From: Octopus vulgaris
Taxonomy: Eukaryota
Length of the DNA stretch: 64,000 nt
Assembly (NCBI GenBank): GCA_951406725.2
Contig: OX597815.1
Span: 6,882,001 to 6,946,000 of the forward strand
Reading direction: 5' to 3'
Every line of letters starts with the position of its first letter. The first letter of the stretch is position 1. The notes under the pieces were generated by a model that had not been told where the DNA came from, searched no databases, and saw only the letters and a list, made by a program, of their open reading frames with translations. Below, one piece after another: positions 1 to 61,273 of the stretch. The position numbers and the translations under genes are program-made.

Positions 1-1110
1 GGAAACTGGCCCTTATGAGCCAAGCATGGCTCAAGAAGGAACAAGCAACTGTTCCTTCTAAAGGATGAAACAATAAGATGACCAGAATGAATGACCACGT
101 GCTGGTGGCACGTAAAAAGCACCATCCGAACGTGGCCAATGCCAGCGCCGCCTTGACTGGCGTCCGTGTCGGTGACACGCAAAAAGCACCAACCGATCGT
201 GGCCGTTGCCAGCCTCCCCCGTGCCGGTGGCACGTAAAAAGCACCCACTACACTCACGGAGTGGTTGGTGTTAGGAAGGGCATCCAGCTGTAGAAACATT
301 GCCAGATTAGACTGGAGCCTTGTGCAGCCTCCCGGCTTCCCAGACCCCGGTCGAACCGTCCAATCCATGCCAGCATGGAAAACGGACTTTAAACATGATG
401 ATGATGATTTTGTTATCACCAAGCTTAATTCTTACATGCTAATGTGCATTTTTTACTCCCATAGCTTTGTGTTTTGATTTATTAGATTAAAAAATGACAT
501 ACTGTCTATTAAAAATTGCATCTACGTATGTTTAATTCTTCCATTATCTCAAAAATCTGATGTGATAGACAAAATCTGATGCCAGATTTAAGATTCAGCA
601 CCCAAAAATTAGCTAAAAACCATTGATAAATAAATTGCAGTGTGGAAGGTGTTTATAAGCCATTTAAAAACATGCAAAAACCGTTAGATTCACTTCAACA
701 TTTAAATTTAATTTGTGTCTCAAAACGACGAAAATATTTTGACACAAATTAAATTTAAATGTTGAAGTGAATCTAACGGTTTTTGTGTTTTTAAATGGCT
801 TACAAACACCTTCCACGCTGCAATTGTTTTCGTTCCAGCACACGATCTCAGATCAGGTCACATGCTATGCAAGTACATCTCCATCGATAAATCTTGTGCC
901 AGAAAATGTGATGACCAGCATTATCATATCAGCTCCATTTTCACCACAGACACAGAGTTGTATATGCCACAATTTGGCATTCTTTCGATATTGGTACACA
1001 AAACAATTCACCCATACAGGACACAAAAGGGGCTTAGCTGAAAAGGTCGGTGAATGAGGTCTTCCCCTCCTCACACTTTGCAGACCAATGCCAAAGGAAT
1101 GCCCTCTATT

Positions 1111-1165
1111 ATTTAGATTTGGGGAAATTTCGAACCTGAGTTCTCATTCCTAAGGTATTTTTTTA

Positions 1166-1205
<40 letters not shown>

Positions 1206-1440
1206 ACATATGGCGTAGTGGTTAAGAGCACAGGCTACTAACCCCAAGATTCCAAGTTCGATTCCAGGCAGTGAACTGAATAATAATAGTAACATCGAAA
1301 AATACCTTAGGAATGAGAACCCAGGTTCGAAATTTCCCCAAGACACCTGAAGAAGGCTGGAGGGTATATCAGCCGAAACGTTAACAACAAAGATGAGGAC
1401 AAATATCTGTCGAGTGTAAATAATGTACATAATTCCTCAT
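1111..1440 (+). mobile_element. tRNA-headed, hammerhead-tailed SINE-like element, copy 1 (with inverted 5' arm)
   Basis: Arm 1119-1205 is the reverse complement of 1276-1341; tRNA-like head about 1210-1275; HHR core CTGAAGA-A-GGCTG..CAGCC-GAAACGTT at 1347-1382. Confidence 0.8.
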
Positions 1441-3670
1441 TATTTCATTCTCTCTTCTTTGTCCCCCACTATCTTCTTTTTTCTTCAATGTTCTGATTTG
1501 TCTCAATCATTATTCATTATTCCCATCCACGTGTGTGTGTTTACACAAACACAAGAAACACTATTTCTTTCAAACATTATATTGAAAACACAACAGTTTT
1601 TGAGTTTAAAGTTTTTTTATTAATGATTTTTCACATTGTCTTTTAAAGTTTGGCACAGTAACAGTTTTAAATGCGTTAATATTTTTCACTCTCTCATCTT
1701 CTAAATAATGTACTCATTAGTCATGTTTCTGTAGTATTTATACATACATTCACACACACATATATTTAATCATATCAAAGGGAAATAGAAATTAATAGAA
1801 ATTTTCACTTCCAGTGGCCTAGCGTGTAAAAATTTAGTCTAGAGACTATGTATTAATCATAAAATACAGTGTACATATAAACACATAAGGAATCCACTCG
1901 TGGGATTCAACATGCTAGAAACAACAGCTAGGTTCCATAACCACAAAATTAGGGATGGTAAAATGTTTTTATTTTTTCATTTCATTCCTGTTGAATTTTA
2001 TCCCTAATTTTGTGGTTATGGAACCTAGCTGTTCTTTCTAGCATGCTGAATCCCATGAGTGGATTCCTTATGTGTTTAAATGTACACTATTTTATTATAT
2101 ATATATATAAAATATGAATTAGAGATAAAACCACTATTATGCAACTCAAACATTGATAGACATAAACCAATACATAAATAACAAATAATATATATTTTTA
2201 TAAAACATATAACTAGTTTTTTTTTATAACTAGTCTATCACTGTTTGAGTTGCATAATAAAATGGTTTTGAGTTGCATAATAAAATGGTTTTATCTCTAA
2301 TTTATATATATTATATATTTATTTTGGGAAATTTGATTTAATACTAAATTGAATTTTTCCCAGTAAGTTTGGAGTTATATTCCCTAATACTATTATTATA
2401 TATATCCCATGCTAGCATGGAAAGCAGACGTTAAATGATGATGATATATGTAATCATTAGTATTTGTTTTGGTCATTAGACTACAGCCACGAGGTAAACC
2501 AAACTGATTTAAGTTTGGTATTATTTTATTGTTCACTTTTTGATGAACTACTCAGTCACAGGCTTCCACACAGTTTCCATCCACCAGATCCACTCCCAAG
2601 GCATCGGTCAGCCCAAGGTAACATGCAGTGGGACAGAACATGGAACCACGTGATTGGGAGGCTAAGTTCTCGACCACATGGCCCTCCGCTTCGGTTATGA
2701 TGACGAGGGTTCCCAGTTGATTCAATCAATGGAACAGCCTGCTCATGAAGTTAATGTGCAAGTGGCTGAGTACTCCACAGACATGTGTACCCTTAGCCTA
2801 ATTCTCAGGGAAATTCAGTGTCACACAGAATATGACAAAGTGAGCCGTTTGAGTTATAGGCACAACTCATGTTTGACTGGAGCAATGTGAAGTAAAGTGT
2901 CTTGCTCAAGAACACAGCTCTCTCGCAGGAATTGTCTACTTTGTCCATAGTGGTCATCATTGTCTTGTGGCAAGCTACTGCATTCACCCATTGCGACTGG
3001 CATTCCGTTGGTTATAACCACGAGCGTTCCAGCTAATCTGATCAATGGAACGGCCTGTCACGAAATTAATAGGCAAGTGGATGAGCACCCCACAGACACA
3101 TGTACCCTCAATGTAGTTCTGAAAGAGATTTAGTGTGACACAGAATGGGACAAGGTTGACCCTTTGAATTACTGGTACAACTCGTTTTTGCCAGCTGGGT
3201 GGAGTGGAGCAACGTGAAATGAAGTGTCTTGCTCAAGGAAACAATGCACCGCTGGGAATCGAACTCACGACCTTACAATTGTGAGCCGAATGCCCCAACC
3301 ACTATTCCATGCGGTGAAGGCACGTGGCCCCACCTGCACCAAATAAATACCACTGGCCGTACGACTGGGTTAATATTATCACAACCGAAATCCCTTGCAA
3401 TGGTTTCTAAATTTAATACATTTTCTCTCTGTGGCTCAAGTAATGTTGGAGGCCTGAACTGCTGGAGGATTAACAGATGTTACCCCACCATCTGGCCCTT
3501 GGGTGCCTCTATCACAATCCACTCTGTTGCAAACATTCTAATCTAACCTCTGGTCCCTTTCACCCTCAACAAGTCTTGGAGATATTGCACTAAACTTATA
3601 AGGCACTTCTCTCTCTCTCCATTCATTAGTCATGTGACCATGGAAATAGAAAAATAAAAAACAAAACAAT

Positions 3671-4360
3671 ATTTACATTATTTAGATTTGGGGAAATTTC
3701 GAACCTGGGTTCTCATTCCTAAGGTATTTTTTGATATTATTATCACTATTTCACCTTACTGGCACTTGTGCCGGTGGCACATGAAAAAAACATTTGAGTG
3801 AGGTCGTTGCCAGTGCCACTGGACTGGCTCCTGTGCAGGTGGCACGTAAAAAACACCATTTGAGCGTGGCTGTTGCCAGTACCACCTGACTGGCCCTCGT
3901 GCTGGTGGCACGTAAAAAGCACCCACTACACTCTCAGAGTGGTTGGCGTTAGGAAGGGCATCCAGCTGTAGAAACTCTGCCAGATCAAGATTGGAGCCTT
4001 GTGCAGCCATCTGGTTCACCAGTCCTCAGTCAAATCGTCCAACCCATGCTAGCATAGAAAGCAGATGTTAAACGATGATGATGATTATTATTATTCAGGC
4101 ATATGGCATATTGGTTAAGAGCACAGGCTACTAACCCCAAGATTCCAAGTTCAATTCTAGGCAGTGACATGAATAATAATAATAATAATAACAACATTGA
4201 AAAATACCTTAGGAATGAGAACCCAGGTTTGAAATTTCTCCAAGACACCTGATGAAGGCTGGAGGGTATATCAGCTGAAATGTTGTGTTGACAACAAACA
4301 AGATGAGGACAAATATCTGTCAAATGTAAATAATTCCTCATCTCTTAAATATAGAACTGT
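3671..4360 (+). mobile_element. tRNA/hammerhead element, copy 2 (RTE tail nested at about 3745-4085)
   Basis: Same inverted arm, head (about 4103-4170) and HHR (4244-4289, CpG-decayed) as copy 1. Confidence 0.8.
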
Positions 4361-7300: not shown

Positions 7301-7814
7301 TACTGCCTGATTGGCCCTCGTGCTGGTGGCACGTAAAAGCACCCACTACACTTAAGGAGTGGTTGGCGTTAGGAAGGGCATCCAGCTGTAGAAACACTGC
7401 CAGATCAGACTGGAGCCTGGTGCAGCCACCTGGTTTCCAATACCCCAGTTGAACTGTCCAACCCATGCCAGCATGGAAAACGAACGTTAAAGATGATGAT
7501 GATGATGATGTTTTGAATCAACCATGCATATCTCATGGCTCTGAGATTTCAATGATGTGATTGCGCATTTTTAACATGACATTGTAGGCTATGTATAAGA
7601 GGCTGGATTTGGTCCGTTTGAACATAAAACATGTGGAATATTTGGGCCCAGAGATGGCCAGTTTAAATGCTAGAGGGTTAAGTGATGGAAATGTAAATTA
7701 GAAAAATGAATGAAAGAATCTATTAAGGTCTTTGGATCAAGCAAAAGTTCTCTGGATTATTTCAGAGACGGAATGATATTTGCACCTTGTTTGAATCTCT
7801 TTAAGCAGTATTAA

Positions 7815-8039
7815 CCCTTACTGCACAGGGACCGACTAAACTTGGTTCTGTGCACGTGCACTTGAGACAGGGAACCAAGTTAAGTCGCTTCTGACAGTCA
7901 GGTACTTTCTGGAATTCTCCACATTTCAAATGACAAAGTACGCATAAATCTAATCAGCGCAATGAGGACTACTTACTTCCACAAAGCAATTTAGCTAAGA
8001 CCAGGAATCAAAGCAAACGAGGGACTCAGCTCGTAAGGG
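7815..8039. mobile_element. piggyBac-type MITE
   Basis: TTAA|CCCTTAC ... GTAAGGG termini; right TTAA is degenerate. Confidence 0.55.
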
Positions 8040-8241
8040 TCACCTCACTCCATTGATTGCTTCGAGAATATATTTAAAAAAATAAAATATAGAGAATAGT
8101 GCAACGTCTTGCAGAACCATTCCAATATTCTTGAACAGAAAAAGATAGGATTTGAAATGCTGATGCCATTCGTTTCTGTGTACCTTTCAATTATCAAAAA
8201 TGGTTTAAAATATGAGATAATCCCTAACACATGTCTGATAA

Positions 8242-8387
8242 TCACACCCAACGTAAATCCTCTTGACGCAATGTAGCTTGTAATTTTCTTGTATCTTTTG
8301 AAATTTGATGAGGTTTTCTCGCCACATTTTCTGAGCCTGTCGGTGGTAGATTCCTGCAAGCCCTTTTCGAAGTTCTTGAATGATTCC
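8242..8387 (-). CDS. CEP57: CEP57-like gene, terminal coding exon ((G)NHSRTSKRACRNLPPTGSENVARKPHQISKDTRKLQATLRQEDLRWV*)
   Basis: Acceptor ctgcttccttAG; phase-1 frame ends KDTRKLQATLRQEDLRWV-TGA, resembling the conserved CEP57-family C-terminus (LLKDM..LQ..L....L.W). This frame is not in the ORF track. Confidence 0.7.
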
Positions 8388-9205
8388 CTAAGGAAGCAGT
8401 TTTGGTTTTACACAGTGATTGGTTGGTTTCTCGTTTTTTCCTCTTTTCGTGTTTAGTTTCTTTCTTTGGCTGAAGAGAAACGAAGAAATATGAAATGGAA
8501 TTGAGAAAAAAAATGGAAATACATCATTTTTACATTGTGTGTGAGTGTATAAAATATATATATCTATAAGAAAACACAAATATTAATGAAGCGGGGGAAA
8601 TAAAAGATCTTTCAAAGACTCCCGGAATGAAATCCTTAACACATAAGAGACTTCCCCCTCTTCTCATCACTCCATCTGTTTCCCGCTTTGTCTCTCCTCC
8701 ATTGTTAAAAGTAAACAGAATAGAAAATATCAATCATATTTACTCTTTACTCTTTTACTTGTTTCAGTCATTTGACTGCGGCCATGCTGGAGCACTGCCT
8801 TTAATCGAGCAAATCGACCCCAGGACTTATTCTTTGTAAGCCCAGTACTTATTCTACCGGTCTCTTTTGCCGAACCGCTAAGTGACGGGGACGTAAACAC
8901 ACCAGCATCGGTTGTCAAGCAATGCTAGGGGGACAAACACACACATACAAACATATACACACACACACTTATATATATATATATACATATATACGACAGG
9001 CTTCTTTTGGTTTCCGTCTACCAAATCCACTCACAAGGCTTTAGTCGGCCCGAGGCTATAGCAGAAGACACTTGCCCAAGATGCCACGCAGTGGGACTGA
9101 ACCTGGAACCATGTGGTTGGTTAGCAAGCTACTTACCACACAGCCACTCCTGAACCTATATTTGTGTATAATGTTAATTTTAAATGATTCTGAGGCTTTC
9201 ATTCC

Positions 9206-9236
9206 CCTGCCTCTGTCCGTTCACATCTTTTCTCTG
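9206..9236 (-). CDS. CEP57: CEP57-like gene, candidate penultimate micro-exon (QRKDVNGQRQ-G) with non-canonical donor
   Basis: Strong polypyrimidine tract + AG at 9237-9238. Its 31 nt would bridge phase 0 to phase 1 exactly, but the donor reads CAGG|GGAATG rather than GT. Read-through gives a TAA at 9180-9182. Confidence 0.4.
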
Positions 9237-9693
9237 CTGTTAAGAAAGTAAAAAAAGAAAAAGAAAATCAATTAAGGCACAGGTGTGGCTGTGTGGTAAG
9301 TAGCCACATGGTTCTGGGTTCAGTCCCACTGCATGGCACCTTGGCAAGTGTCTTCTACTGTAGCCCCAGGCCAACCAAAGCCTTGTGAGTGGATTTGTAC
9401 GGGTGCCAGTCAAGTGGCACTGGCATCGACCACGCTTGAATGGTGCTTTTTATGTGCCATCAGCATGAGGGCCAGTCAAGTGGCACTGGCATTGACCATG
9501 TTTGAGTGGTGCTTTTTACATGCCACCAACACAGGAGCCAGTTAGGTAAAAAAGGTAAAGGTAAAAAAAGGTAAAAAGAAAAGATATCTAAGCAGCAAGG
9601 ATGCTGGGGAGGGTTGGAAATGTGTGAGTGTGTTGTGGGATGGAGGTGAAAAAAAAAAAAAATATAGAAGCAATTATTGATAGATTCCTTTAC

Positions 9694-9838
9694 CGGGTAG
9701 AGGACTTTGCGAATTTTAACCATTTGCTTTGCTTTTGTTTCCATCAGATCCACGAGGTTGTCAATCTCTGTCTCAAGATCTTTGTGTAATTGGCTCTCAC
9801 AGGTTTCGTTATAAAGCTTCGTTAAGTTCTGGTGTTTC
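9694..9838 (-). CDS. CEP57: CEP57-like exon, microtubule-binding domain (KHQNLTKLYNETCESQLHKDLETEIDNLVDLMETKAKQMVKIRKVLYP)
   Basis: AG...GTAAAG boundaries, phase 2->0; aligns by eye to Cep57_MT_bd (HQQLAKLIQE...LECELEALVGRMEAKANQITKVRK). Confidence 0.88.
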
Positions 9839-10424
9839 CTGTCAATCAAATATTTTTAAAATTCAAATTTAGTCAAAAATGACTGAAACAGGTAAAAGAA
9901 ATAAAGAATATTAATTACTATTAATTATTATGTGAAGTATATTTACCACTTAAATGTGGCTAACCACTAAGGGTGGATGCTACTGTAGCTTGTAGCCCCA
10001 GGAGAACATCTCCAGCTGGCTATTGACAGACTTTCTGTCCCCTATCGTGTGTCAATAGCCACCCTTAGTGGTTAGCCACATTTAAGTGGCAAATATACTT
10101 CACACTGTCGTGCAGCTACTGTTTATAACTCATTCAGAGATTTATTATTATTATTATTATTGCTGCTGCTGCTACTACTGCTACTACTTCAGTGAATGTG
10201 GATTTACATCATCATCATCATCATCACCATCTTCATCAAGTCAAAATTTTACACGTGGCATTGGTTTTCGGAGTAGACAGCCTTGCTCCCACCACTTAAA
10301 TTACAGGGTAGACTGAGTGCATTTTTTTCCATGCCACCACCACTAAAGAGATTGTCTCACAGAACTCAACTATCCTCTCCACACTCAGATTTTATTTGGA
10401 GTTGCCTTCACTATGGTTTACAAA

Positions 10425-11154
10425 ATTCATATCCAGGTTGATAATGTGTCAATTCACAAGGCTAATGTTATTCAAAGTTGGTACAAAGAATACAAGAGCG
10501 AAGCAGGCCACATGAAATGACTCTTTCAATCACCAGAACTCAATATAAGCAAACATTTATGGTAGATTTTGGAGCAACAAGTGGGGTGCCACTTCCTTCA
10601 GCCAGAGTCACTGAAAGAAGTAAAACAGGTTTTACTTAAAGAACAGCACAAATTCCTGTAAAAAGCATTCATAACCTTTATGAATTAATTCCTAAACACA
10701 TTAAAGCTGTGACTGACACCAAAGGTAAATCAATTCCATATCTCTATATGAAGTAAAGCAAGTTTCCCTTAAAGAACAGCACAAATTCCCGTAAAAAGCA
10801 TTCATAACCTTTATGAATTAATTCCTAAACACATTAACCCTTTCGTTACCAACCCGGCTGAAACCGGCTCTGGCTCTGTAGTACAAATGTCTTGTTTTCA
10901 CAAGTTCTGAATTAAAATCTTCCACCAAACCTTAGTCACAATTCATGGTCCTAACACTAGCTTAATGATAACTAAGTTATTTTACTAAATTCTTTGTTAT
11001 ATTTAAAGTAATTGAAAGAAACACAGAGCATCTCAAAATAAATACGGTAACGAAAGGTTTAAAGCTGTGACAGACACCAAAGGTAAATCAATTCTATATT
11101 AAATAATAAAACTTCGATTTAACGAAGTGTTTCCATTATTTTGTCCAGCCCCTG
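10425..11154 (+). mobile_element. Tc1/mariner transposase 3' remnant with TIR
   Basis: Translates IQVDNVSIHKAN..W..QSPELNISKHLW...IPKHIKAV..TKG..PY (Tc1 DD34E C-terminus, with stops); ends GTGTTTCCATTATTTTGTCCAGCCCCTG; about 105-bp internal duplication. Confidence 0.8.
10838..11058. mobile_element. piggyBac-type MITE inserted in Tc1 remnant
   Basis: TIR CCCTTTCGTTACC / GGTAACGAAAGG(T), TTAA on both sides; empty site ACACA-TTAA-AGCTGTGA visible in the duplicate copy at about 10696-10712. Confidence 0.85.
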
Positions 11155-11157
11155 GAG

Positions 11158-14148
11158 CAGTCAAACTTCTTGATCAAGTTATGAAGGTCACAGAGAAAGT
11201 CAGAGCCCAACTGATCCTTAATAGTGTAGACATGGATGTGATGCAGTTTGGCTTTGTCCCTGGAAGTGGCACCACAGATTCAATCTTTCTAGGGATACAA
11301 TTACAGAAATTCCTGGCTAAGAATAAACTGCTACACTGGGCTTTTGCTGGTTTGAAGAAAGTCTTTGACATTCAGTAATCTGGTGGGGATTGAAGAAACT
11401 AGGAGCAGATGAATGGTTTGTGCAGATGGTTCAAACCACGTACAAGGATGCGACAAGTGAGGGTTGGCAATGACTTGAGGGATGAATTCAGTATGAACAT
11501 AGGGAGTACTTCAAGGTTCTCTCCTCAGTCCCCTCTTATTCATTGGTCCTAAAAAGCCATCACAGAGGAGTTTAAAACAGACTGTCCATGGGAACGACTA
11601 TACGATGATGATGCTCTCGTTCTCATAGCTAAATCACTAAGGGAAATTGAGAAGAAACTCCAGACATGGAAACTAAAACTGGAATCGAGAGGTCTTAAGG
11701 TAAAGATGAAGGTTTTAGTAAGACCTTGGTAATTTTAGAGGAATGGCCCTGTTTGATAAACGAAAAAAGAGTAGGTATAAACTCCATACACTTATTTCTT
11801 TATTGCCCACAAAGGGCTAAACATAGAGGGGACAAACAAGGACAGACAAAGGGATTAAGTTGATTTCATCGACCCTGAAAGGATGAAAGGCAAAGTTGGC
11901 CTCGATGGAATTTGAACTCACAACGTAAAGACAGATGAAATACCTATTTCTTTACTGCCCACAAGGGGCTAAACACAGAGAAGACAAACAAGGACAGACA
12001 AACGGATTAAGTCGAGTGCGTAACTGGTACTTATTTAATCGACCACGAAAGGATGAAAGGCAAAGTCGACCTCGGCGGAATTTGAACTCAGAACGTAAAG
12101 GTGGATGAAATACCACTAAGCATTTCACCCGGCGTGCTAACGTTTACTCCGTACAATGTACTTGATGTAAGCTATGGATACACAAGAGATGTAGAACAAG
12201 CACTGGCTGATTATCTGAAAATATAAGCTTCATATGTGGTAGCAGCACTGGAGCAGTTCATACAAGCATCCAGAAATTGAGTCTCTTAAATGCCCAGATC
12301 ATTCATTAGAAGAAGTTGTTAGCTTTTGTTACTGAGATGTAATTAGCAAGGGAAGTGGTGTCTCTGGAAGTATTGTAGGCACAGTGAGAACTGATTGGAG
12401 AGAGTTCAGGGAGCTACAATCCCTACTGATAACAAAAATGAAGATCTTTCCTGTAAGAGTGAAGGGCAGACTGGGTGATGCTTGTGTCAGAACTGCAGTG
12501 CTGCATGGTGGTGAGACATGGGCCTTAAATGCAGATGGCTTGAAAGAAATGAAGTGAGCATGCTCTACAGAATGTGCAATATGAGTGTGCATGAAGGAGT
12601 TGGTAGAAAGGGCATCGGAGGAATGAAATGTGTGAAAGAAAGAAGACTGCACTGGTATGGACACACGATGTGTATGGATGAGGATAGCTGTACAAAGTGG
12701 TGGTGGTCACTAAATGTGGCTGGAACTTGCAAAAAAAGGGATGGGACAAAGTGGTTAAGGCTGACCTTAGGACTCTGAGCTTGATGGAGATGACAAAGGA
12801 CTGGTATCTCTGATGATATGAAGGGTGGCATGCATGGGCGACTGCTGGTCTTTCGTAAACAACCTTGCCCAGATTTGTGCCTTGGAGGGGAACTTTCTAG
12901 GTGCAATCCCATGGCCATTCATGACCAAAGGGGGTCTACAAATCCCTTCAGGTAGATGGCCCTGCTCAATCTGTAGAAAAGGTGTAAATAGAAACACCAT
13001 AAGATCCACCCAGTGTAAGCTTTGGACATAAAAAGTGCAGCAACACCAGAGGAAGGTTATCGGGGAAACTTTTGTACGTGGAAGGTGCACAGGTACAATA
13101 AACACTGAAAATACACAGAAAATAGACTCCATCAACTACCAGTGGGGTAAGCTAGAGGTAGTAGATAGCTTCTGTTATCTTGGTGATCAAGTTAGTAGTG
13201 GAGGTGGATGCCCCAAGAGTGCAGCTGAGGATAAGATTAGGCTGGGCAAAGTTCAGAGAGCTCCTACCTCTGCTGGCAACAAAGGTCCTCTCTCTTAGAA
13301 TGAAAGGCAGATTGTTCGATGCCTGTGTGCAAACAGCTATGCTACATGACAATGAAACATGGGCTGTGACAGCTTTGAACGTGTGTAGGCTTGAGAGAAA
13401 TGAAGCCAGTGTGCTTTGCTGGATGTGCAATGTCAGTGTGCATATTTGACAGAGTGTAAGCATCCTAAGAGAAAAGTTAGACATAAGAGGCATCAGATGT
13501 GGTGTGCAAGAGAGACGACTGTGCTAGTATGGACATGTGATGTGTATGGATGAAGACAGCTGTGTAAAGAAGTGCTGATCTCTGTGGAGGGAACCTGTGG
13601 TAGAAGTAGACCCAGGAAGACATGGGTCTTCGAACTTTGAGCCTCACAGAGGCAATGACTGGTGACCGAGACTGTTGGTGATGTGCTGTGCTTGAGAGGA
13701 CCGGTCAAGCCAAGTGCACTTGTGCTGGTGGCACATAGAGAACATTTTTTGAAAGTTTGGGCCTCATGGAGGCAAAGTGGCTGAGTTCCTTTCGAGCGTT
13801 GGGCCTCACGGAGGCAATGCCCAAGACCTTTGGCATTATGTCATGCTTGGGAGGAGGACCCATCAAGCCGAGCAGAAGTGCAGTGATGGTGAATATCAGT
13901 GTTATGCAAATCAATATCCGTGCCGGTGACATGTAAACGCACCCCAGTGTCACTCAAATGGCACATAAAAGCACCCATTACACTCTTGGAGTGGTTGGTT
14001 TTAGGAAGGGCATCCAGCCATAGAAAACCAAGCCAAATCAGACTGGAGTCTGGTGCAGCCTTTCCAGCATGCCTCTCCTGGTCAAACCATCCAACCCATG
14101 CCAGCATGGACGACGGACATTAAATGATGATGATGATGATGATGATGA
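11158..14148 (+). mobile_element. Degenerate RTE-clade LINE remnants (RT domain, C-terminus, 3' UTR with (GAT)n tail); at least two copies plus nested SINEs
   Basis: KLLDQVMKVTE..QFGFVPG.GTTD, LYDDD (YADD-like), RLGWAKFRELLPLL..CVQTAMLH..ETW motifs with stops and frameshifts. Confidence 0.85.
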
Positions 14149-14479: not shown

Positions 14480-14694
14480 CTGGAAAGAGAAAGACAACGG
14501 AGTTATCCTTTATTTTTTATTTGTTGCAGTCATTAGACTGCGGCCAAGCTGGGGCACCACCTCGGAGAATGATTGGTCAAACAGATCTACCACCACCCGC
14601 AAGACTTATTGTCTATAAAAGCATGCACATACATCTCTCTCTCTCCCTCAATATATATATGTATATACACACACACACACATATATATATATTT

Positions 14695-15274
14695 CTATAT
14701 TTAAGAGATGAGGAATTATTTACATTATTTACATTTGACAGATATTTGTCTTCATCTTTGTTGTTAACACGTTTCAGCTGATGTACCCTCCAGCCTTCAG
14801 TCAGGTGTCTTGGGGAAATTTCGAACCAGGTATTGTTCACTGTTATTATTATTATTATTACTACTACTATTATTATTATTATTCGTGGCATGTAAAAAGC
14901 ACCATCCGATCGTGGCCGTTTGCCAGCCTCATCTGGCACCTATGCCGGTGGCACGTAAAAAGCACCCACTACACTCACGGAGTGGTTGGCGTTAGGAAGG
15001 GCATCCAGCCGTAGAAACATTGCCAGATAAGACTGGAGCCTGGTGCAGCCTTCTGGCTTCCCAGATCCCCGGTCGAACCGTCCAACCCATGCTAGCATGG
15101 AAAGCGGACGTTAAACGATGATGATGATGATGTCACTGCCTGGAATCAAACTCGGAATATTGGAGTTAGTAGCCTGCACTTTTAACCACTACACTGAGGG
15201 GTACATCAGTCGAAATGTTGTGTTAACAACAACCAAGATGAGGACAAATATCTGTCAAATGTAAACAATGTAAA
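14695..15274 (-). mobile_element. tRNA/hammerhead element, copy 3 (minus, RTE tail nested, inverted tail fragment at 15195-15274)
   Basis: HHR remnant at 14766-14809 (minus), head at 15132-15194 (minus). Confidence 0.75.
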
Positions 15275-21392: not shown

Positions 21393-22584
21393 ATATGCTG
21401 TGACTGCAAAGACCAGGGCTGCTTCCTGCACAAGTCCTGCATAGCCCCATGCCCATTCAAAGTACCTTGGATTCCAGAACATCCCGCTGTGCTTGAGGAG
21501 ACCTATTGAGTCAAGTACATGAACATCGAAATAAATATCAATGGAAATAGTAGTTGTGATACCTGTGCCGGTGGCACATAAAAAGCACCATCCGAGCGTG
21601 GCCAATGCCAGCGCCACCCCGACTGGCTTCTGTGCCGGTGGCACATAAAAAGCACCATCTGAACGTGGCCGATGCCAGCGCCGCCTTGACTGGATTCCGT
21701 GCCAGTGGCACGTTAAAAGCAACCACCGATTGTGGCCGATGCCAGACTCCCCTGGCACGTAAAAAGCACCCTCTACACTCACGGAGTGGTTGGCATTAGG
21801 AAGGGCATCCAGCTGTAGAAACACTGCCAGATCAGACTGGAGCATGGTGCAGCCCCTGGCTTCCCAGACCCTGGTCGAACTGTCCAACCCATGCTTGCAT
21901 GGAAAACGGACGTTAAATGATGATGATGATGATACATATATACAGCTAGATAGATGCAACCCCATGATTCTGAGTTCAGTCCCACTGTGCAGCACCTTGG
22001 GCAAGAGTCTTCTATGCTTGCCCCAGGCCAACCAATGCCTTGTGAGTAAATTTGGCAGGCAGAAATTGCGTGGTCTGTTGCACATGTCCGTCCGTGTGTG
22101 TGTGTGGGGTACATTTTTGTCTGCCCACTCTCCCCCTCACTGCTTCACATCCGGTGTTAGTTGCTGATGTTCCCTTGACGTAGAGGTTCAGCAAAAGAGA
22201 CAAACAAAATAAGGACCAAACTTAAAAAGAAAAAGAAGTATAGGAGTTGAGTTATTCAACTAAACCCTTTGAAGTGGTGCCCCAGCATGGCCACAGTCCA
22301 ATGACTGAAACATGTAAAAGAAGGTACCTTTTATCCTTTACTTTATCACCACCATCACCATCAAAAACATCATCATCGCTTAACGCCTGCCTTCCATGCT
22401 GGCATGGGTGGGACAGTTTGACAAGAGCTGGCCAGGTAGAAGCCTGCACCAAACTTCTGTAACTGTTTCAGCAGGATATCCTTAGACTGTGCCCATGCTG
22501 GAGGACACAAACACACCAACTCTGGTTGTCAAATGGGGTGGGTGGGTGGACAATCACAGACACAAAGACACACATACAATTCAC

Positions 22585-23105
22585 ACACTGTGCTTGAGGA
22601 GACCTATTGAGTCAAGTACAACAAAAGATCAAATGGAAATTGCATTTGTGATACCTGTGCCGGTGGCACGTAAAAAGCACCATCCGAACATGGCCGATGC
22701 CAGCGCCACCTTGACTGGCTTCCATGCTTTTGGCACGTAAAAAGCACAAACCGATTGTGACCATTGCCAGCCTCGCATGGGATCTGTGTCGGTGGCACGT
22801 AAAAAGCACCATCCGAACGTGGCCGATGCCAGTGCCACCTTGACTGGCTTCCGTGCTGTTGGCACATAAAAAGCACGAAACGATCGTGACCGTTGCCAGC
22901 CTCGCATGGCATCTGTGCCGGTGGCACGTAAAAAGCACCCACTACACTCATGGAGTGGTTGGTATTAGGAAGGGCATCCAGCTGTAGAAACACTGCCAGA
23001 TCAGACTGGAGCCTGGTGCAGCCTCCTGGCTTCCCAGACCCCGGTCGAACCGTCCATCGCATGCTAGCATGGAAAGCGGACGCTAAACGATGATGATGAT
23101 GATGA
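22585..23105 (+). mobile_element. RTE-derived 3' tail element with about 60-bp tandem units (representative of >20 copies)
   Basis: GGTGGCACGTAAAAAGCACC units, GTTGGCGTTAGGAAGGGCATCCAGC, CATGCTAGCATG hairpin, (GAT)n tail. Others at about 100-408, 5720-6186, 21480-21933, 23930-24228, 24683-25075(-), 39440-40015, 53615-53898, 57365-57900, 63200-63737. Confidence 0.85.
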
Positions 23106-26119: not shown

Positions 26120-26500
26120 ACAATATAGTAAAGAGTGCTTCACAAAGATTGGTCCAGAAAATTCTACAGACTCCAAAAAAAAAACTACTAAACACCTACA
26201 AATCTCAAATGAGACCCAAAATGAAGAATGGATACTAAGTCAGGCACAGAAGCTATAAAAACATCCAGACATCCTAGAACACATCCAAAGAAGGTCATAT
26301 AAGTTATAGGCAAGAGATCACTCACCAAAACGTCCCAACCTCTGAACCACAGAACTACTGTGTCCCCTCTCCCTTCCTCCAACACTCTTTTGTACCAATA
26401 CTACACTGACTACTACCTGGCTTCTGACTAATCAGGCACCGAAGACTCTCTCACCTCTCCAACTATGGAGTGTCAATACACCAAGATCCTGCACTATTCA
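26120..26500 (+). mobile_element. Old CR1/L2-group LINE fragment abutting the B-exon acceptor (also 34110-34290, 42690-42940)
   Basis: Degenerate ASQRL..ARKFF..YKS..RPK.EY.SHIW.GA..LD.IQ.R frame, in the same position next to three B exons. Confidence 0.6.
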
Positions 26501-26506
26501 TTCCAC

Positions 26507-26759
26507 ACCATATGCCCGTGGGCTTATGGCGTAGTGGTTAAGAGCGCAGGCTACTAACCCCAAGATTCTGAGTTCGATTCCAAGCAGTGACCTGAACAAC
26601 AATAATAATAATAACAACATCGAAGAATACCTTAGGAATGAGAACCCAGGTTCGAAATTTCCCCAAGACACCTGATGAAGTCTGGAGGGTATATCAGCCG
26701 AAACGTTGTGTTAACAACAAACAAGATGGGAACAAATATCCGTCAAATGTAAATAATGT
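26507..26759 (+). mobile_element. tRNA/hammerhead element, copy 4 (best preserved)
   Basis: A box TGGCGTAGTGG 26527-26537, B box GAGTTCGATTCC 26570-26581, (AAT)n spacer, HHR 26667-26712; flanked by CATTCCAC direct repeats (26499-26506, 26760-26767). Confidence 0.85.
26667..26712 (+). ncRNA. Minimal type I hammerhead ribozyme motif (Penelope-like)
   Basis: GACAC-CUGAUGA-A-GUCUG(GAGGGUAUAU)CAGCC-GAA-ACGU-U^-GUGUU: stem I GACAC/GUGUU, both core boxes, palindromic ACGU in place of stem III; stem II is GGCUG/CAGCC in copy 1. Confidence 0.75.
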
Positions 26760-27974
26760 CATTCCACCCTGTTCTTCTTTACCAGAATGTTGGTTCTCAA
26801 GGATTCCATCCGTCATCTTGGTTTAACTGTAGACATTGATGTTCAAGAGGACTGTTAACCATGTTGATGGCACCAGTATGAGAGCATCCACAGAAACACG
26901 TCTACAGTTCCTCCCTCCAACATTCACGACAATTCCATGACATGACCATATCAGCAATGAATTCCACAGTAATTCTGTAATTCACAGAACTTTGGACACT
27001 AAACTTTGTTTGCGAAGACTTGTTGAGGCAAGTGAAATCTAAATCAAATTCGACGACTGGCATCCGTGCAAGTGGAGCGCTAAGAGTAACATACGAGCGA
27101 GATCGTTACCAGAGCAACAAGCTGGCCTCCATGCCGATGGCACGTTAAACACACCATTCAAGCGTGATCGTTACCTGTGTCGCCTTACTGGCACTTGTGC
27201 TGGTGGCACGTGAAAAAACATTCAGGCGAGGTCGGTGCCAGTATAATGATTTTTAAGGTATTATTTCCTTTTCTCTCTCTTTCCATTCTCGTTTTCTTTC
27301 CCCTGTGTACTTACAATTTTCCTCTCACACTCACAGCCTCAGTTTCTTGCCACATTCTCCATTTCTCTCAAACACTTTTATTCAAACTTTTCCATTAAAA
27401 GTAATTACAAAGTCTTACTTTGAGACACATGACATCAGTGCCCTGCGAGTGAATTCACTTGATGTGGAAACTGTGTGGAAGCCTGTTAGGTGGATTGTAC
27501 CTCTAACTCAAAGGCCAAGATTGTTTACACACTGATACTGAATCTGTCTGAGGACCATGTTAAGGGGTCACATGTCTGTGGGATACACAGCCATTTAGGT
27601 AATCAGTCAATGTGTAGGTTTCCCAATTGAAGGAACAACTGGAATGACCACCAAAACTGATGTATTGTGGGGGTGGGGTCTGTCTAATCTTTTTTTATCA
27701 AACTCTACCACAGCAAACAAATGATGTGGTAGGATTTGAACTCACAAACTACTCCACTACATTATCTTCTAACTATTGGAAACTGAAAAGAATTATAAAA
27801 TGGTGTTATGTGGAGACCCTGAATGTATCAAAATGCCTGAGTGAACCTAAGCAGAGTCTGCAACTTCTTGTGTACCATCAAATTAACAGCATCCAGGCTT
27901 CAGCCCCAGCTTATCTCAATTGTCATGATATTGTCCAAGATAACACCTGTGCTGGTGGCACATAAAGAGCATCC

Positions 27975-40328: not shown

Positions 40329-41428
40329 CTGGACAGACATGAACAAAAGAACATTTGAAGCAAATTATGATGATTAAAAGAAACATCATTAGACATTTAC
40401 ACGTATAATATTTCGACTGCAATGGACATAAGGTGGATGGCTGGATGGATGGACAGATGTTTATATATTTATATATTTATATGATACAGATCATACACAA
40501 ATCACAATTTGTATCAAGTATTTGTGTTATACCCTTATAAATTAAGGGTCAGTTTAAACGGACGATTGGCATGAATGGGTTAAGCAAGAACCAGAGGTCA
40601 ATAACAAGTAAGAGAGATGGTATGGAAAGCAGTGACTATTGGGGTCGACTAAAAAACTCAATCTCTACTCTTTCCAATGCCGCCAGGAGTGCTACATCAT
40701 TTGTGTGATGTGGAAAATATTCCATCAATATTGCTCAAATGATGTTGGCATCAATTTTAAAATCCATCCAAGACTTGGCCCCATGCAATCTGCCCACTTC
40801 AAAAAGTTACAAACATCCACTTGATATATTGATAAATAAAACCACTAGAGTTGTTTTGTAACTCTTTTACCTGTTTCAGTCATTTGACTGTGACCATGCT
40901 GGAGCACCACATTTAGTCGAGCAAATCGACCCCCACCACTTATTCTTTGTAAGCCTAATACTTATTCTATCGGTCTCTTTTGCCATACTGCTAAGTTACG
41001 GGGACACAAACACACCAGCATCAATAGTCACATGATGTTGGGGGACAAACACAGACACACAAACATACGCACACACATATATATACATATATACGATGGG
41101 CTTCTTTCAGTTTCCGTCTACCAAATCCACTCACAAGGCTTTGGTCAGCCCGAGGCTATAGTAGAAGACACTTGCCCAAGGTGCCACACAGTGGGACTGA
41201 ACCCGGAACCATGTGGTTGGTAAACAAGCTACTTACCTCACAGCCACTCCTGTGCCTAAAGTCAGAGTAAATTCATGATTATTTTAGAATTCAAGTGAAA
41301 TATTGTATTTTAGTTTGAAATATAGTAAAGATTACATTAAAACATCTTTCAATCAAATAAACTTTCCCTTTTGGTTTTGTCATTACTAAGCTAAAACAAC
41401 AATGGGTTTGTCGCATCCTTAGTACTGA

Positions 41429-41912
41429 CATGCATAAGATCTGGTCATCAAATCTAAGTAGAGACTTCAAACTTGAAATCTTCAAAGCCACAGTCGAACC
41501 AATTCTACTATATGGCTCAGAAACCTGGACGTTATCAAAGAAGCTTGAGAGGCGGTTGGATGGAACCTACACTCGCCTCCTTATGAGAGCTCAAAATCTC
41601 TCGTGGAAGCGCCATCCAACCAAAGTACAAATATATGGGAAATTACCACCTGTATCATCTCTTGTGAAAGGTAGGAGAGTCCAGTTTGCTGGACATTGTT
41701 GTAGAGCTGAAAAAGAGGTAGTTTCTACTCTCCTCCTCTGGAAGCCATCTACTCGCAATGCCAGAGGGCGCACACTCTCCTACCCTGATGTAATCTCCAG
41801 GGATACAGGCATCCAGCAACAGGACCTCCATAATGCTATGATGGACCGTGAGGTCTGGTGTAGCATGGTAAATTCCATTGTCTTGACCACAGTCGAACAA
41901 TGATGATAATGA
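41429..41912 (+). mobile_element. 5'-truncated RTE LINE, open C-terminal frame, young
   Basis: 157-aa frame (ILLYGSETWTL..RRVQFAGHC..DREVW), (TGA)n tail, TSD TAGTACTGA at 41420-41428 and 41913-41921. Confidence 0.9.
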
Positions 41913-44299: not shown

Positions 44300-44906
44300 T
44301 TTATTTCTTTATTTCCCTCAAGGGGTTAAACACAGACGGGACAAACAAAGGGATTAAGTCAATTACCAGAAATGTTAGCAAACCGGTCAAAATGCTTTGT
44401 GGTATTTCGTCCAACGCTGCGTTCTGAGTTCAAATTCCGCCGAGGTCGACTTTACCTTTTATCCTTTTGGGGTCGATAAATTAAGCACCAGTGACGCACT
44501 GGGGTCGATGTAATCGACTTAATCCATTTGTCTGTACTTGTTTGTCTCCTCTATGTTTAGCCCATTGTGGGCAATAAAGAAATAGGTACTTAATTTATCA
44601 ACCCCGAAAGGATGAAAAGCTAAGTCGACCTCGGCGGAATTTGAACTCAGAACGTAACGGCAGATGAAATACCTATTTCTTTACTGCCCACAAGGGGCTA
44701 AACACAGAGGGGACAAACAAGGACAGACAAACGGATTAAGTCGATTACATCGACCCCAGTGTATAACTGGTACTAATTTAATCGAACCCAAAAGGATGAA
44801 AGGCAAAGTCGACCTCGGCGGGATTTGAACTCAGTACGTAATGGCAGACGAAATACCGCTAAGCATTTCGCCCGGCGTGCTAACGGTTCTGCCAGATCGC
44901 CGCCTT
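44300..44906. mobile_element. Cluster of oppositely oriented SINEs of the GGCGGCGAGCTGGCAGAA family
   Basis: GAGTTCAAATTCCGCCGAGGTCGACTTTGCCTTTCATCC core; also at 5175-5575, 11790-12145, 36183-36328, 56599-56836 (TSD AGGTATGATC), 60790-61255. Confidence 0.85.
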
Positions 44907-52184: not shown

Positions 52185-52405
52185 CTACATTATTTACATT
52201 ATTTACAATAGACATATATGTATCCTCATCATGTTTGTTGTTACCACAATGTTTCGACTGATTTATTCTCCAGCCTTCATCAGGTGTTCTGGAAGAATTT
52301 TGAACCCAACCTCTATAATTGTCAACGGGCTTATAGTGTAATGGTTAAGAGCATGGGCTACTGACCCCAAGATTCCGACTTCAATTCCAAGCAGCACCTT
52401 GAATA
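52185..52405. mobile_element. tRNA/hammerhead element, copy 5 (inverted HHR tail, then plus-strand tRNA head)
   Basis: Minus-strand AACAC-CTGATGA-A-GGCTG..CAGTC-GAAACATT at 52243-52288; head about 52326-52400. Confidence 0.75.
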
Positions 52406-52476
<71 letters not shown>

Positions 52477-52487
52477 TAATAATTATA

Positions 52488-52892
52488 AATAGAATAGGAA
52501 GCTGGACATAGTCTTAATTGAGAAAGAAAGCAAACTATGCTGGATCATAGATATAACATACCCAGCTGACAACAAGGTATGTGATAATGAAGAAAGAAGA
52601 GTCGAGAGATACAACAGGTTAGCTTGGGAGGTAAAGCAGTTGTGGTCGATGAAAAAGGTAGCAGTAATTCAATAACTGTCGGAGCCCTGGGAACAGTGAG
52701 TAAAAATCTTGAGAGGTACCTAGAACAAATAGGGGCTGCAATAAGAGTGGAGCACTTGAAGAAAACAGCACTGATTGGAACCGCTCGAATACTCTGGAAG
52801 GTGCTCGAAAAATAAGAGGTGTTACCTTAGTTCACTGGTAATGAACAGCTGACATTGTAATACATCTCCAGCGTTAGAAGCTGTGCAAAGGC
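52488..52892 (+). mobile_element. R4/Dong-clade non-LTR retrotransposon 3' end (restriction-like endonuclease) in a (TAA)n tract
   Basis: NRKLDIVLIEKESKLCWIIDITYP...VGALG...LKKTALIGTARIL frame with one frameshift; (TAA)n on both sides. Confidence 0.8.
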
Positions 52893-53476: not shown

Positions 53477-54261
53477 CTGGTAAAATATAAATAAAATATA
53501 ATTTTTAGATATAACTAGGTTGTTGTTTGCTGCTACACTGCAGGTAAAAATATTTGTTAAACATGCACATACACCTGCATAAATTATTAAAGTGAAGGTC
53601 ATTTTTTAAAGTCTGTATTCGAGCGAGGTCGTTGCCAGTGCCGCTGGACTGGCCCCTGTGCAGGTGGCACGTAAAAAGCACCATTTGGGCATGGCCATTG
53701 CCAGTACCACCAAACTGGCCCTCTTGCCGGTGGCACATAAAAGCACCCGCTACACTCTCGGAGTGGTTGGCGTTAGGAAGGGCATCCAACTGTAGAAACT
53801 CTGCCAGATCAGATTGGAGTCTGGTTCGCCAGTCCTCAGTCAAACCATCCAACCCATGCTAACATGGAAAGCGGACGTTAAACGATGATGATGATGATGT
53901 CTTGTCTATATGTTGAATGTCTCACAAACACACACACACAAACAATCCCATTAAAATAACAAAATGGATATTATATATTCATATGAAACGAAAAAATAAA
54001 TGCGCTCTTTTAAAGCCTAGCCAGGCTCATGGGCCCGGTTTCCCAGTTTCAATGGCGTATGTGTTCCCCAGCTGGATGGGACACCAGTCCATCGCAGCGT
54101 TACTCATTTTTGCCAGCTGAGTGGACTGGAGCAACATGAAAGGAGGTGTTTTGCTCAAGAACACAATGCATCACCCGGTCCAGGAATCGAAACCACAATC
54201 TTACGATCATGATGCTGACACCCTAACCACTAAGCCACGCGCCTCCACATATATTCATATA

Positions 54262-55390: not shown

Positions 55391-55476
55391 CAGGGGTTTT
55401 CTCTAATTCTCTAGTGATAAATGTGATATGTTGTAAACCAAATAAAAGAGAGGCTCTTAGCAATGCATAACATTAC

Positions 55477-58648: not shown

Positions 58649-61273
58649 CTGGAGCAAAGGAAACAGAAAGACATATACACAGGGCTGGCCAGAATTCACC
58701 TGACAGTAAATCAAAATTCCATAAATACTCTCTGTAATTCTGTATCGACTTGAATGGAAAATGTGTTGTTCAAGAAGGACTTCAGTTTGGACAATTTTCA
58801 TGATGTTTCATAATCAAATGCTTATATTAAATTCATTCAGTTGTTAAACATAAATGAATTTTGGAATTAAATGGCTTTTTTGATTTACTGTCAGGTGACT
58901 TTTGACCAACCTTATATATATATATATATATATTTATGTATATATAGTACGTTTTTATATTTGTTGTGCAAGATTTTTTATGTGAAGTCGTGTGTTGAAA
59001 CAGATATTGCTATATTTCGGAATGGTCATTTTGCCAGTTTAGCCAATAAAAGATTAAGATTAATGTAAAAAATAAATAACACTGAAGCAAAATAACACCA
59101 AATATATAGAGCGTGTGTTTTTATTGGCTAAACTGGCAATATGACCATTCCGAAATATAACAATATGTATATATATTTTGCTGCGAAAGGTTTTTGATAC
59201 GGTGCCACTTTTACAATCCTGTAAATAATAAGGCATTTTTTTTATATAAGCTTAAAGCTTATGGCAATCACTGTGCAATGACTAAGGAAAATAGTCTAAT
59301 AAAGGGGCATGTAAGCCCTCGACAGAAAAAAGAAGGCTTTCCTATTTGCTTGGGAGTCGAACCCACATCTCTTTGCTAATGTGACTAAGTGTGTTACCTT
59401 TACATCAGCGAATCAGCCACCCAGCTTTTTCCTGTCAAATTTAAGAAGTGAAAGCAAATAGAAAGTTTGTTTACATATAAAAAAATAACAAATACGAACT
59501 ATTATAGTTCTTAAATTTGACAGGAAAAAGGAGGCTGATAAAGGGATGTGGGTTCAACCCCCACGCGGATAGGAAAGCCTTCTTTTTTCTGTTGAGGGGT
59601 TATATGCCCCTGTATTGGACTATTTTCCTTTGTCATTGCAAGGTGATCACCATAAGCTTTAAGCATATATAAATATACCATATATATATATGTATGTATG
59701 TATATATATATATAGGGGAGAATTCACTGGCACCCATCATTGACCCTATCACATCACCAACTCCTTCCCCTGTGCTTTCCCCACTCTCCCAGCATTGGTT
59801 GTCAAGCGATGTTGGGGGGACAAACACAGATACACAAGAATATACACACATACATACATACACACACACACATATATACGATGGGCTTCTTTCAGTTTCC
59901 GTGTACCAAATCCACTCACAAGGCTTTGGTCAGCCTGAGGCTATAGTAGAAGACACTTGCCCAAGGTGCCACGCAGTGGGACTGAACCCGGAACCATGTG
60001 GTTGGTAAGCAAGCTACTTACCACACAGCCACTCCTACACCTATGAAACTTGGAGAGTAACAACAAACAAGGTGAGGGCACCTGTCCATCCATTGTAAAT
60101 AATGAAACTTCAAGCATGAATTACTTATTGGTTGGAACCCTGGGGGAATGCCATCCCAAGCACAGGTACAAATACTATTTATATTTCACATCAAGCACAC
60201 CTCCACCCCACTTCATCACTCACTACCTTCATTCCCATCTGTTAATCTCCCCTCAGTCCTAAAACCCCTACCAAACCCATCCTTTGTTTTCCCAACCCAC
60301 TGTCCATACCCTCACTTCCTTCTTGAGGCTTTGCTCTGGTACCCCATCACTATCATCTTACCTTCTTCCTAGATACACCCACCTACCCTTATATAATGCA
60401 GGGTAGCCATGTATTTTTTGCTATAGCAAGACACCTGCACATGTCCTTCTGGCACACTTTGACCTCCCCACACCTGGCATAAAGCACCTTCCAAAATACT
60501 CACCCACCATGTGAAGGAGCTTTTTCCTTTTCTTGTCCTTTCACCTATCATGCAAGTCACTTGTCAACCTCAGTAGTTTCTGGTGGCCAGTCCTCTCTGT
60601 AAAGTGGTTGGCATTTGGAAGGAAAACCAGCTGTAGAAACCCTGACAAAGCAGACATCAGAACTTGATGCAACCCTGCAGTTCACTGGACCCTGGCAAAC
60701 CACCCATGCCATCAAGGAAAACAGACATTAATTGGTTACGATGATGATTATATATGTTTACACACACACACACACACCTTATATACTGGTATCAAATTTT
60801 GACACTAGGCTAGCAATTTTGGGGGTGAGACAAGTCAATTACATGGACCCCCTGTGCTCATCTGGTACTTATTTTATCAACCCTGAAAGACTGAAAGGCA
60901 AAGTCGACCTTGGGGGGAATTTGAACTCAGAATGTAAAGACGCACGAATTGCCCCTTAGCATTTTGCCAGGCATGCTAACGACTCTGCCAGCTCGCCGCC
61001 TTATACATACCTTATATATATATTTCTTTATTGACCACAGGGGGACTAAACATAGAGGAGACAAACAAGGACAGCCAAAGGTATTAAGTCGATTACATTG
61101 ACCCCAGTGCATAACTGGTACTTATTTAATCGACCCCGAAAGGATGAAAGACAAAGTCGACCTCGGCGGAATTTGAACTCAGAACGTAACGGCAGACGAA
61201 GTACGGCTACGCATTTCGCCTGGCGTGCTAACGTTTCTGCCAGCTCGCCGCCTTATACATACATACCTTATAT

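Follow-up and report, generated by a model that had tools for sequence, protein, structure and literature searches.

The window analysed here, a stretch of 64,000 nucleotides of the Octopus vulgaris genome, contains five copies of a composite repeat, numbered 1 to 5 in order of position, and a degraded tail fragment that was absent from the earlier list of copies (Table 1). Copy 4 shows the arrangement given to it by a previous sequence-only reading: a tRNA-like head, an AAT run, a spacer, a hammerhead ribozyme (HHR) and a tail occupy 26507-26759, and the 8-bp flanking duplication (TSD) is present on both sides. The first 13 nucleotides of this copy do not belong to the head. They form a fold-back junction at a hairpin spanning head positions -7 to +5, and the head itself begins at 26520. 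The coding part of copy 4 stops at the proximal of two alternative 3' end sites (26759). The same layout had been ascribed to all five copies. It holds for the forward copies 1, 2 and 4, whereas copies 3 and 5 are inverted composites: the layout of copy 3 is present on the minus strand, with its AAT run interrupted by another repeat, and that of copy 5 fails, since only an inverted tail arm and a forward head with its AAT run are found there and no forward HHR. The forward unit of copy 1 has a deletion after the cut site, and that of copy 2 ends with the long form of the tail and has an unrelated repeat inserted upstream, at about 3751-4085. The absence of a T4 run between head and HHR, pointed out for copy 4, is real and extends to all of that copy, but it is not special to it, copies 1 and 2 also being free of T4 between head and HHR.

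Table 1. Features of the repeat family in the 64-kb window (pLTR, pseudo-LTR, the terminal repeat of a Penelope-like element, PLE, to which the unit is assigned in the text)
Feature	Positions	Strand	Remarks
Copy 4, left TSD	26499..26506	+	8 bp
Copy 4, inverted arm	26507..26519	-	11 nt (= head +1..+11) plus 2-nt centre
Copy 4, tRNA-like head	26520..26594	+	5' part of PLE pLTR; best match tRNA-Arg(TCT)
Copy 4, A box	26527-26537	+	
Copy 4, B box	26570-26580	+	
Copy 4, (AAT/AAC)n run	26595..26619	+	in 5' UTR
Copy 4, remaining 5' UTR	26620..26637	+	
Copy 4, first 40 codons of Penelope/Poseidon ORF	26638..26759	+	ATG at 26638; HHR inside
Copy 4, minimal type I hammerhead	26667..26712	+	
Copy 4, HHR helix I	26667-26671/26708-26712	+	
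Copy 4, HHR core CUGAUGA	26672-26678	+	extra A at 26679
Copy 4, HHR helix II	26680-26699	+	mismatch at 26681
Copy 4, HHR 3' core GAAACGUU (GAAA-CG-UU)	26700-26707	+	predicted cut after 26707
Copy 4, right TSD	26760..26767	+	
Copy 1	1108..1441	+	inverted arm without HHR, then AAT run; forward pLTR begins at 1206
Copy 2	3671..4360	+	HHR-less inverted arm as in copy 1; forward pLTR 4098-4360
Copy 3	14687..15274	-	minus-strand pLTR; forward tail arm 15196-15274
Copy 5	52189..52488	.	inverted tail arm 52189-52306, forward head 52327-52405, AAT run
Degraded tail fragment	60058..60104	+	absent from earlier list of copies

Copies 1 and 2 have in common the arm-to-head junction and several private changes; their flanks are unrelated, and two linked subfamily sites differ between them. 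The HHR-less inverted-arm junction that they share has two matches in the genome, both in this window and 2.6 kb apart, and a spreading HHR-less subfamily was rejected on that count. The pair suggests that a composite unit, together with some DNA lying upstream of the head, was copied again locally; a template switch on a read-through transcript may have been involved. Other repeats were encountered in the window. A very common one, which is built internally of 66-bp tandem units and finishes in (GAT)n (3751-4085, 14884-15132, 21563-21745, 22655-22939 and others), is inserted in the microsatellite parts of copies 2 and 3. Two long inverted repeats (44496-44762 and 1883-2072) give sub-threshold matches to Rfam miRNA families and are probably pieces of fold-back transposons. 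Decayed LINE reverse-transcriptase fragments, judged from ORF translations, lie at 41361-41903 and 54121-55470.

The ribozyme of the unit fits the minimal PLE type of PMC4209133, as had been proposed. To the extent covered by the available text of that paper, it shares the extra nucleotide before G10.1, the G10.1-C11.1 pair, the 5-bp helix I, the palindromic 15.2-16.2 and the lack of a loop III, an architecture without difference. The expectation that the core would be largely kept did not hold in the window, where each of the five HHRs has a defect: copy 1 is missing the helix I 3' strand, copies 2 and 5 read GAAAUGU and GAAACAU, copy 3 carries an insertion in the core and a 3-nt deletion, and copy 4 has GUCUG (26681) where GGCUG had been reported in helix II and a minimum-energy fold that is not the hammerhead. 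A search of the window with Rfam models (E<=1) returned no hammerhead match and no tRNA match, ARAGORN found no tRNA in it, and folding z-scores of its HHR and head regions were not significant. In a 46-nt copy of the majority motif from elsewhere (L007), the minimum-energy fold consists of helices I and II (-12.0 kcal/mol).

The 35-nt HHR motif has 2155 exact matches in the genome against none for the reversed control; the repeat is thus not due to chance. A 34-mer of the tail has 2899 exact matches and a 25-mer of the head start 2052, with 0 for the controls. Five insertions in 39 evenly picked 10-kb stretches (390 kb) lead to an estimate of roughly 36,000 insertions in the 2.8-Gb genome, with a Poisson range of about 12,000-84,000. 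Family sequence was also found in sequencing runs under five organism labels, and no RNA run with it was among the indexed runs listed.

The relationship of the unit to a longer element was first met at one of the 30 closest copies, which stands head-to-head with an RT ORF 28-29% identical to that of a Neptune-type PLE. Among 20 loci selected through the ORF, the head lies 29 nt past the stop codon and in the same orientation in 10, other loci breaking off sooner or being rearranged; exact UTR-head junctions number 195 genome-wide. On the other side of the unit, the reading frame of the tail passes without a shift into that of the ORF at 6 loci, and there are 74 exact tail-ORF junctions. Along the full element, the ORF (RT, GIY-YIG) with its stop is thus followed after 29 nt by the head, the AAT run, the 5' UTR, the ATG, the HHR and the tail. 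Because the start codon lies inside what had been called the spacer, the HHR is coding sequence, and the U/A variation at N7, which is indeed present, is therefore a third-position difference between Asp and Glu in the ORF. Judged from these junctions, the whole unit, from head to tail, is the pLTR of an autonomous Penelope/Poseidon element of the same genome. The tail thus has the predicted counterpart in an autonomous Penelope pLTR, and the match extends to the entire unit, head included. Head and HHR are linked in most copies, and mobilisation by Penelope enzymes is upheld. The idea of a separate non-autonomous SINE with a borrowed tail is not, since the complete unit, with its head, is the pLTR of the autonomous element. 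As in a SINE, copies begin at a tRNA-derived head with A and B boxes, but the head is not its own and the entire unit is part of an autonomous element.

The ORF gives an RVT_1 match (E 5.6e-10), and its C-terminus is 34% identical to that of a PF01541-annotated relative (E 1e-27); the Pfam GIY-YIG profile found no match in the decayed copy. The majority reading frame is open for 843 codons. Its translations contain the CCHH residues in EN and no CX2-5CxxC finger in the RT-EN linker, and, since these are the features of the clade definition of PMC8557442, the element would belong to the Penelope/Poseidon clade of EN+ PLEs, by motif definition and not by a tree. Its closest protein relatives are 60-72% identical. 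Seven of eight metagenome loci with 35-45% identity were scanned and yielded no A/B-box pair, most of them being without a complete pLTR. Copies are 88-95% identical to their majority and the ORFs that were read are broken, from which the family looks older than an intact 781-aa Neptune family of the same genome.

The latter was reached through PF01541 and rejected as the partner of the unit: its HHR differs (U3-A8 core), as does its tail, and nothing in it matches the unit. A partner diverging at helix I was likewise discarded, with only 7 matches, all of them truncated or rearranged copies. The Neptune-type family is young (L071-L076, e.g. G000:C7:95740001-95750000), with many intact 781-aa frames; its copies are 91-98% identical, end in (TA)n and carry the U3-A8 core HHR in the 3' repeat. 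Further short repeats with minimal HHR variants (U3-A8 or C3-G8 cores), one of them in an inverted pair, occur at L057:7300-8500, L049, L061, L088, L058:1-150 and L064:1550-1680, and are probably the termini of other PLE families.

The anatomy of insertions was read in 90 regions on contig 1, for which an exact tail motif was the sole criterion and the first 92 matches listed were used; they represent 89 distinct insertions, as L149 and L150 overlap. An inverted arm lies upstream in 60 of the 89. A TSD of at least 10 bp flanks 25 of the 89, compared with 4 of 882 mismatched pairs; most are 11-13 bp long, and two or three fall in simple repeats. The 3' ends form two groups, with 77 of 150 arms ending at positions 237-249, 70 at 266-274 and none at 250-265; position 274 is the reference end, but run-on into the ORF is rare, as the 74 exact junctions indicate. 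The two sites, at about 247 and at 272-274, are some 27 nt apart, or 36 with a 9-nt duplication. These two end groups match the optional tail of PLEs, which in the anole element PAc corresponds to two internal RT start sites (PMC11167929, available part). Inverted arm, TSD and an optional tail of 30-40 bp are all as expected of an EN+ PLE. Members of at least three other repeat families adjoin the AAT run or break it up, as if they targeted (AAT)n microsatellites (L142, L143, L151, L148, L158, L162, L173, L159, L170, L227 and L197); one of them resembles the terminal part of a restriction-like-endonuclease LINE.

The 3' ends lie about 59 and 86 nt beyond the cut site and the 5' ends at the head, so that the hammerhead cut defines neither end of the element. 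This bears on a further possibility, namely that the family is a non-LTR retrozyme of the SM-alpha type, in which tandem monomers are cut by the hammerhead, circularised and reinserted. A Pol III head followed by a type I hammerhead is also the arrangement of the SINE-like repeats of Schistosoma, in the available text of PMC6765202, and the HHR core is slightly less mutated than base-matched positions: 18 mutations against 29.2 expected in 87 arms (P=0.018) and 43 against 54.9 in a larger set of 216 arms (P=0.057), both samples carrying a selection bias. The copies are nevertheless dispersed and head-to-head and do not form tandem monomers, neither element end falls at the cut, and the HHR is of the minimal PLE type and lies inside an ORF. 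We regard a retrozyme as extremely improbable. Core and cut triplet are intact in 18 of 66 arms counted, and a 3-nt deletion that removes the cut triplet is carried by about 6% of arms and about 10% of RNA reads. In PAc, according to PMC11167929, the HHR is dispensable for insertion in vitro and is active only with protein. The octopus hammerhead probably needs protein or a dimer, and would not set the ends of the element.

The 5' ends of the 89 insertions were classified by hand. The 5'-most template position is at head -7 to +4 in 40, upstream of it (-26 to -858) in 15, inside the head in 11 and in the tail in 11; in the remaining 12 it is unresolved within the AAT run, most of these being abutted or interrupted by other elements. 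With truncation at 0.24% per nt within the head and at 0.28% per nt further upstream, 1.6 ends are expected in the 11-nt window, so the 40 ends at -7 to +4 among the 55 insertions that reach the head start correspond to P of about 1e-49. About a quarter of these 40 junctions are fold-backs at the hairpin -7 to +5, and the hairpin alone could be a fold-back hot spot, which counts against reading the pile-up as a Pol III start. Without the about 11 fold-back junctions the excess persists (P about 1e-34); most head-start junctions are not fold-backs and are spread over -7 to +4, mostly 8-15 nt before the A box. Among the ORF-running arms at 29 loci with a tail-ORF junction, none reaches upstream of the head; L327 is a downstream pLTR with no continuation into the ORF. 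Only one ORF-running arm reaches +1, that of L319, which begins there and includes 344 nt of ORF sequence. The landing points of internal jumps are -6, -6, +1 and +7. Most simply, the template would be an RNA whose 5' end coincides with the start of the head and that is able to extend into the ORF.

Short copies are far more numerous than ORF-linked ones (40 against 15 of the 89), as would be the case if they were a separate non-autonomous tRNA-SINE lineage that uses Penelope enzymes, the ORF-linked copies being chimeras or its source. A linked pair of variants, A at N7 and G at unit position 226 (p=2e-18), is carried by 13 of 38 head-start copies against 2 of 28 (p=0.016), and copies 1 and 2 of the window resemble one composite unit copied locally. 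The enrichment was not replicated: 40 UTR-linked loci were fetched and compared with the head-start copies, and 7 of the 27 that could be scored have A7 (p=0.59; pooled p=0.08). Subfamily variants also occur in ORF-linked copies. Moreover, the frequent variants of the coding part that are not CpG decay are mostly synonymous, conservative or in frame (3- and 9-nt indels), a pattern that protein-coding masters would be expected to leave. Exceptions are a single replacement, Asn>Ile, and an extra nucleotide within a C run, a 1-nt insertion carried by 10 of 216 arms. Since the subfamily enrichment was not confirmed, short and long copies would share their masters, as far as this can be judged from their variants, and we consider a separate lineage improbable.

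The A and B boxes announced for the head are present at tRNA spacing and kept in the majority sequence, and the head is identical to tRNA-Arg(TCT) at 52 of 73 positions, the best of 30 tRNA loci that cover six isotypes only. On the sense strand, the 823 codons of the majority ORF contain no T4 run, against 29 on the antisense strand; a lone T4 in one majority version is in a column covered by two sequences. Codon usage of the ORF itself leads one to expect 2.9 (P=0.025), and its third-position frequencies 4.5 (P=0.005). T4 runs number 8-12 in each of five control PLE ORFs and 2-12 in every one of 12 control ORFs, some of these controls being copies of one family. Natural copies contain 22 T4 runs in 38.6 kb, or 0.57 per kb, compared with 2.5 per kb in six other PLE loci of the same genome (some of one family) and 4.6 in six foreign ones. 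The T4 test is modest and, resting on a majority sequence, suggestive. Together with the promoter boxes and the 5' ends, it suggests that Pol III may transcribe the element, possibly over its whole length. Against this stand the absence of a tRNA call in the head by ARAGORN and Rfam and, in the available part of PMC10886601 (Kojima), the view that autonomous elements must use Pol II. Furthermore, because a Pol III RNA has no cap, translation of the ORF is left unexplained. RNA-seq from one study (5,600-11,300 family reads per run) consisted mostly of parts of host transcripts, about 80% of the reads running into unlike sequence, with a coverage that is highest at the 3' end of the ORF and declines towards its 5' end. 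No piled RNA ends were seen in it, and unstranded paired-end libraries cannot show them.

Alternatively, the pLTR could be the same and its head a passenger, a piece of a tRNA-SINE that landed between stop and start codon of an element transcribed by Pol II. The pile-up of 5' ends would then be due to the small hairpin, to RNase P-type cutting at +1 or to a coinciding Pol II start. The fold-back junctions are centred on the hairpin, as this requires, and there are precedents in other PLEs, with the limitation that each source was available in part: the promoter of D. virilis Penelope is TATA-less, internal and associated with an intron (PMC2377424), and palindromes are found at the 5' ends of Adineta pLTRs that have Pol II-like motifs and no tRNA heads (PMC3846280). 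A passenger fits less well with head-start junctions that are mostly not fold-backs and are spread over -7 to +4, with A and B boxes kept in the majority and with the 0 to 29 imbalance of T4 runs between the strands. Nor was a GT-AG intron seen among the RNA joints listed, which come mostly from host transcripts. We consider a passenger head rather unlikely.

The best joint explanation, to which we assign a probability of roughly 0.68, is that the repeat is the pLTR of an autonomous PLE with a tRNA-like Pol III head, and that its solo copies come from internal RT starts. An RNA beginning at the head would carry the tail sites within its first ~275 nt. If the element's RT started internally at these sites, as it does in vitro for PAc, it would reach the 5' end of the RNA after 250-275 nt and leave a solo pLTR of SINE size, and a frequent fold-back or template jump at that end would give the inverted arm. 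Starts at the tail sites of the downstream pLTR would produce the longer, randomly truncated copies. We are less sure that this Pol III RNA would extend across the entire ORF, free of T4 as it is. Where their boxes are intact, solo copies may themselves be sources of RNA for copying in trans, copies 1 and 2 of the window being an apparent local example. In its most complete form the proposal is that a tRNA-Arg promoter was captured, that Pol III transcribes the entire ~2.8-kb unit from it, that selection keeps the unit free of T4, that its RNA is translated although uncapped, and that internal priming close to the 5' end of this RNA gives rise to SINE-sized copies; this we hold tentatively, at somewhat less than even odds.

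Octopus tRNA-SINEs named OK, OR1 and OR2 were reportedly described by Ohshima and Okada in 1994. OR1 and OR2 derive from tRNA-Arg, and all three have, like the present unit, a tRNA-derived head. The listing of OR2 as a CORE-SINE in the available part of PMC4758252 is at odds with a repeat whose body consists of PLE coding sequence. A catalogue entry as a SINE may nevertheless exist for the short form, with OR1 and OK as candidates. Several features of the element are those of PAc from Anolis (PMC11167929) and Pen2a from Adineta (PMC3846280), as far as the accessible text of both papers goes: one ORF, some 840 codons long, that combines RT with a GIY-YIG domain at the C-terminus, an ORF start in the pLTR with the HHR overlapping the coding start, an optional tail of ~30 nt with two end sites, an inverted 5' arm and a TSD. 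Unlike in these portrayals, the octopus pLTR starts with a tRNA-derived A/B-box head and head-start solo pLTRs dominate, whereas the pLTR promoter described for Pen2a is Pol II-like, with TATA and Inr. Schistosoma SM-alpha and Sj-alpha, in the text of PMC6765202 that was available, also combine a Pol III promoter with a following type I hammerhead in a short abundant repeat; those repeats are described as tandem with units defined by cleavage, whereas the octopus unit belongs to an autonomous PLE, its HHR is minimal and it ends away from the cut. The TRIMp3 elements Cassandra, Helenus and Ajax (PMC10886601, in part) have a small-RNA-derived Pol III promoter inside a terminal repeat, but they are non-autonomous LTR elements whose autonomous partners lack the promoter, which the octopus autonomous element carries itself.

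The previous sequence-only reading knew of no description of this family as ribozyme-bearing. SINE-like repeats with Pol III promoter and hammerhead are known in Schistosoma, from the same portion of PMC6765202. The papers searched contained no autonomous PLE pLTR with a tRNA head and no hammerhead in an octopus SINE. PLE insertion anatomy is known, as is a pLTR with the ORF start and the HHR inside it; what is unusual here is the tRNA-Arg-like head in the pLTR. Its two ingredients are already known separately, Pol III promoters with hammerheads in the repeats of schistosomes and Pol III promoters in terminal repeats in TRIMp3, in the parts of those reports available.

For annotation, a family that resembles a tRNA-SINE and comprises roughly 36,000 insertions would consist of PLE termini. 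SINEs have been described as partners of LINEs. If the most complete form of the proposal is true, an autonomous element would have given rise directly to a SINE-like family that relies on non-LINE enzymes. A PLE with its own tRNA-type promoter and a terminator-free ORF would also challenge the assumption, as worded in the available part of PMC10886601, that autonomous elements need Pol II, and would call for an account of how translation works on an uncapped RNA. Finally, the pile-up of 5' ends is a genomic readout of where the template has its 5' terminus, and as such bears on how solo pLTRs and inverted arms are formed.
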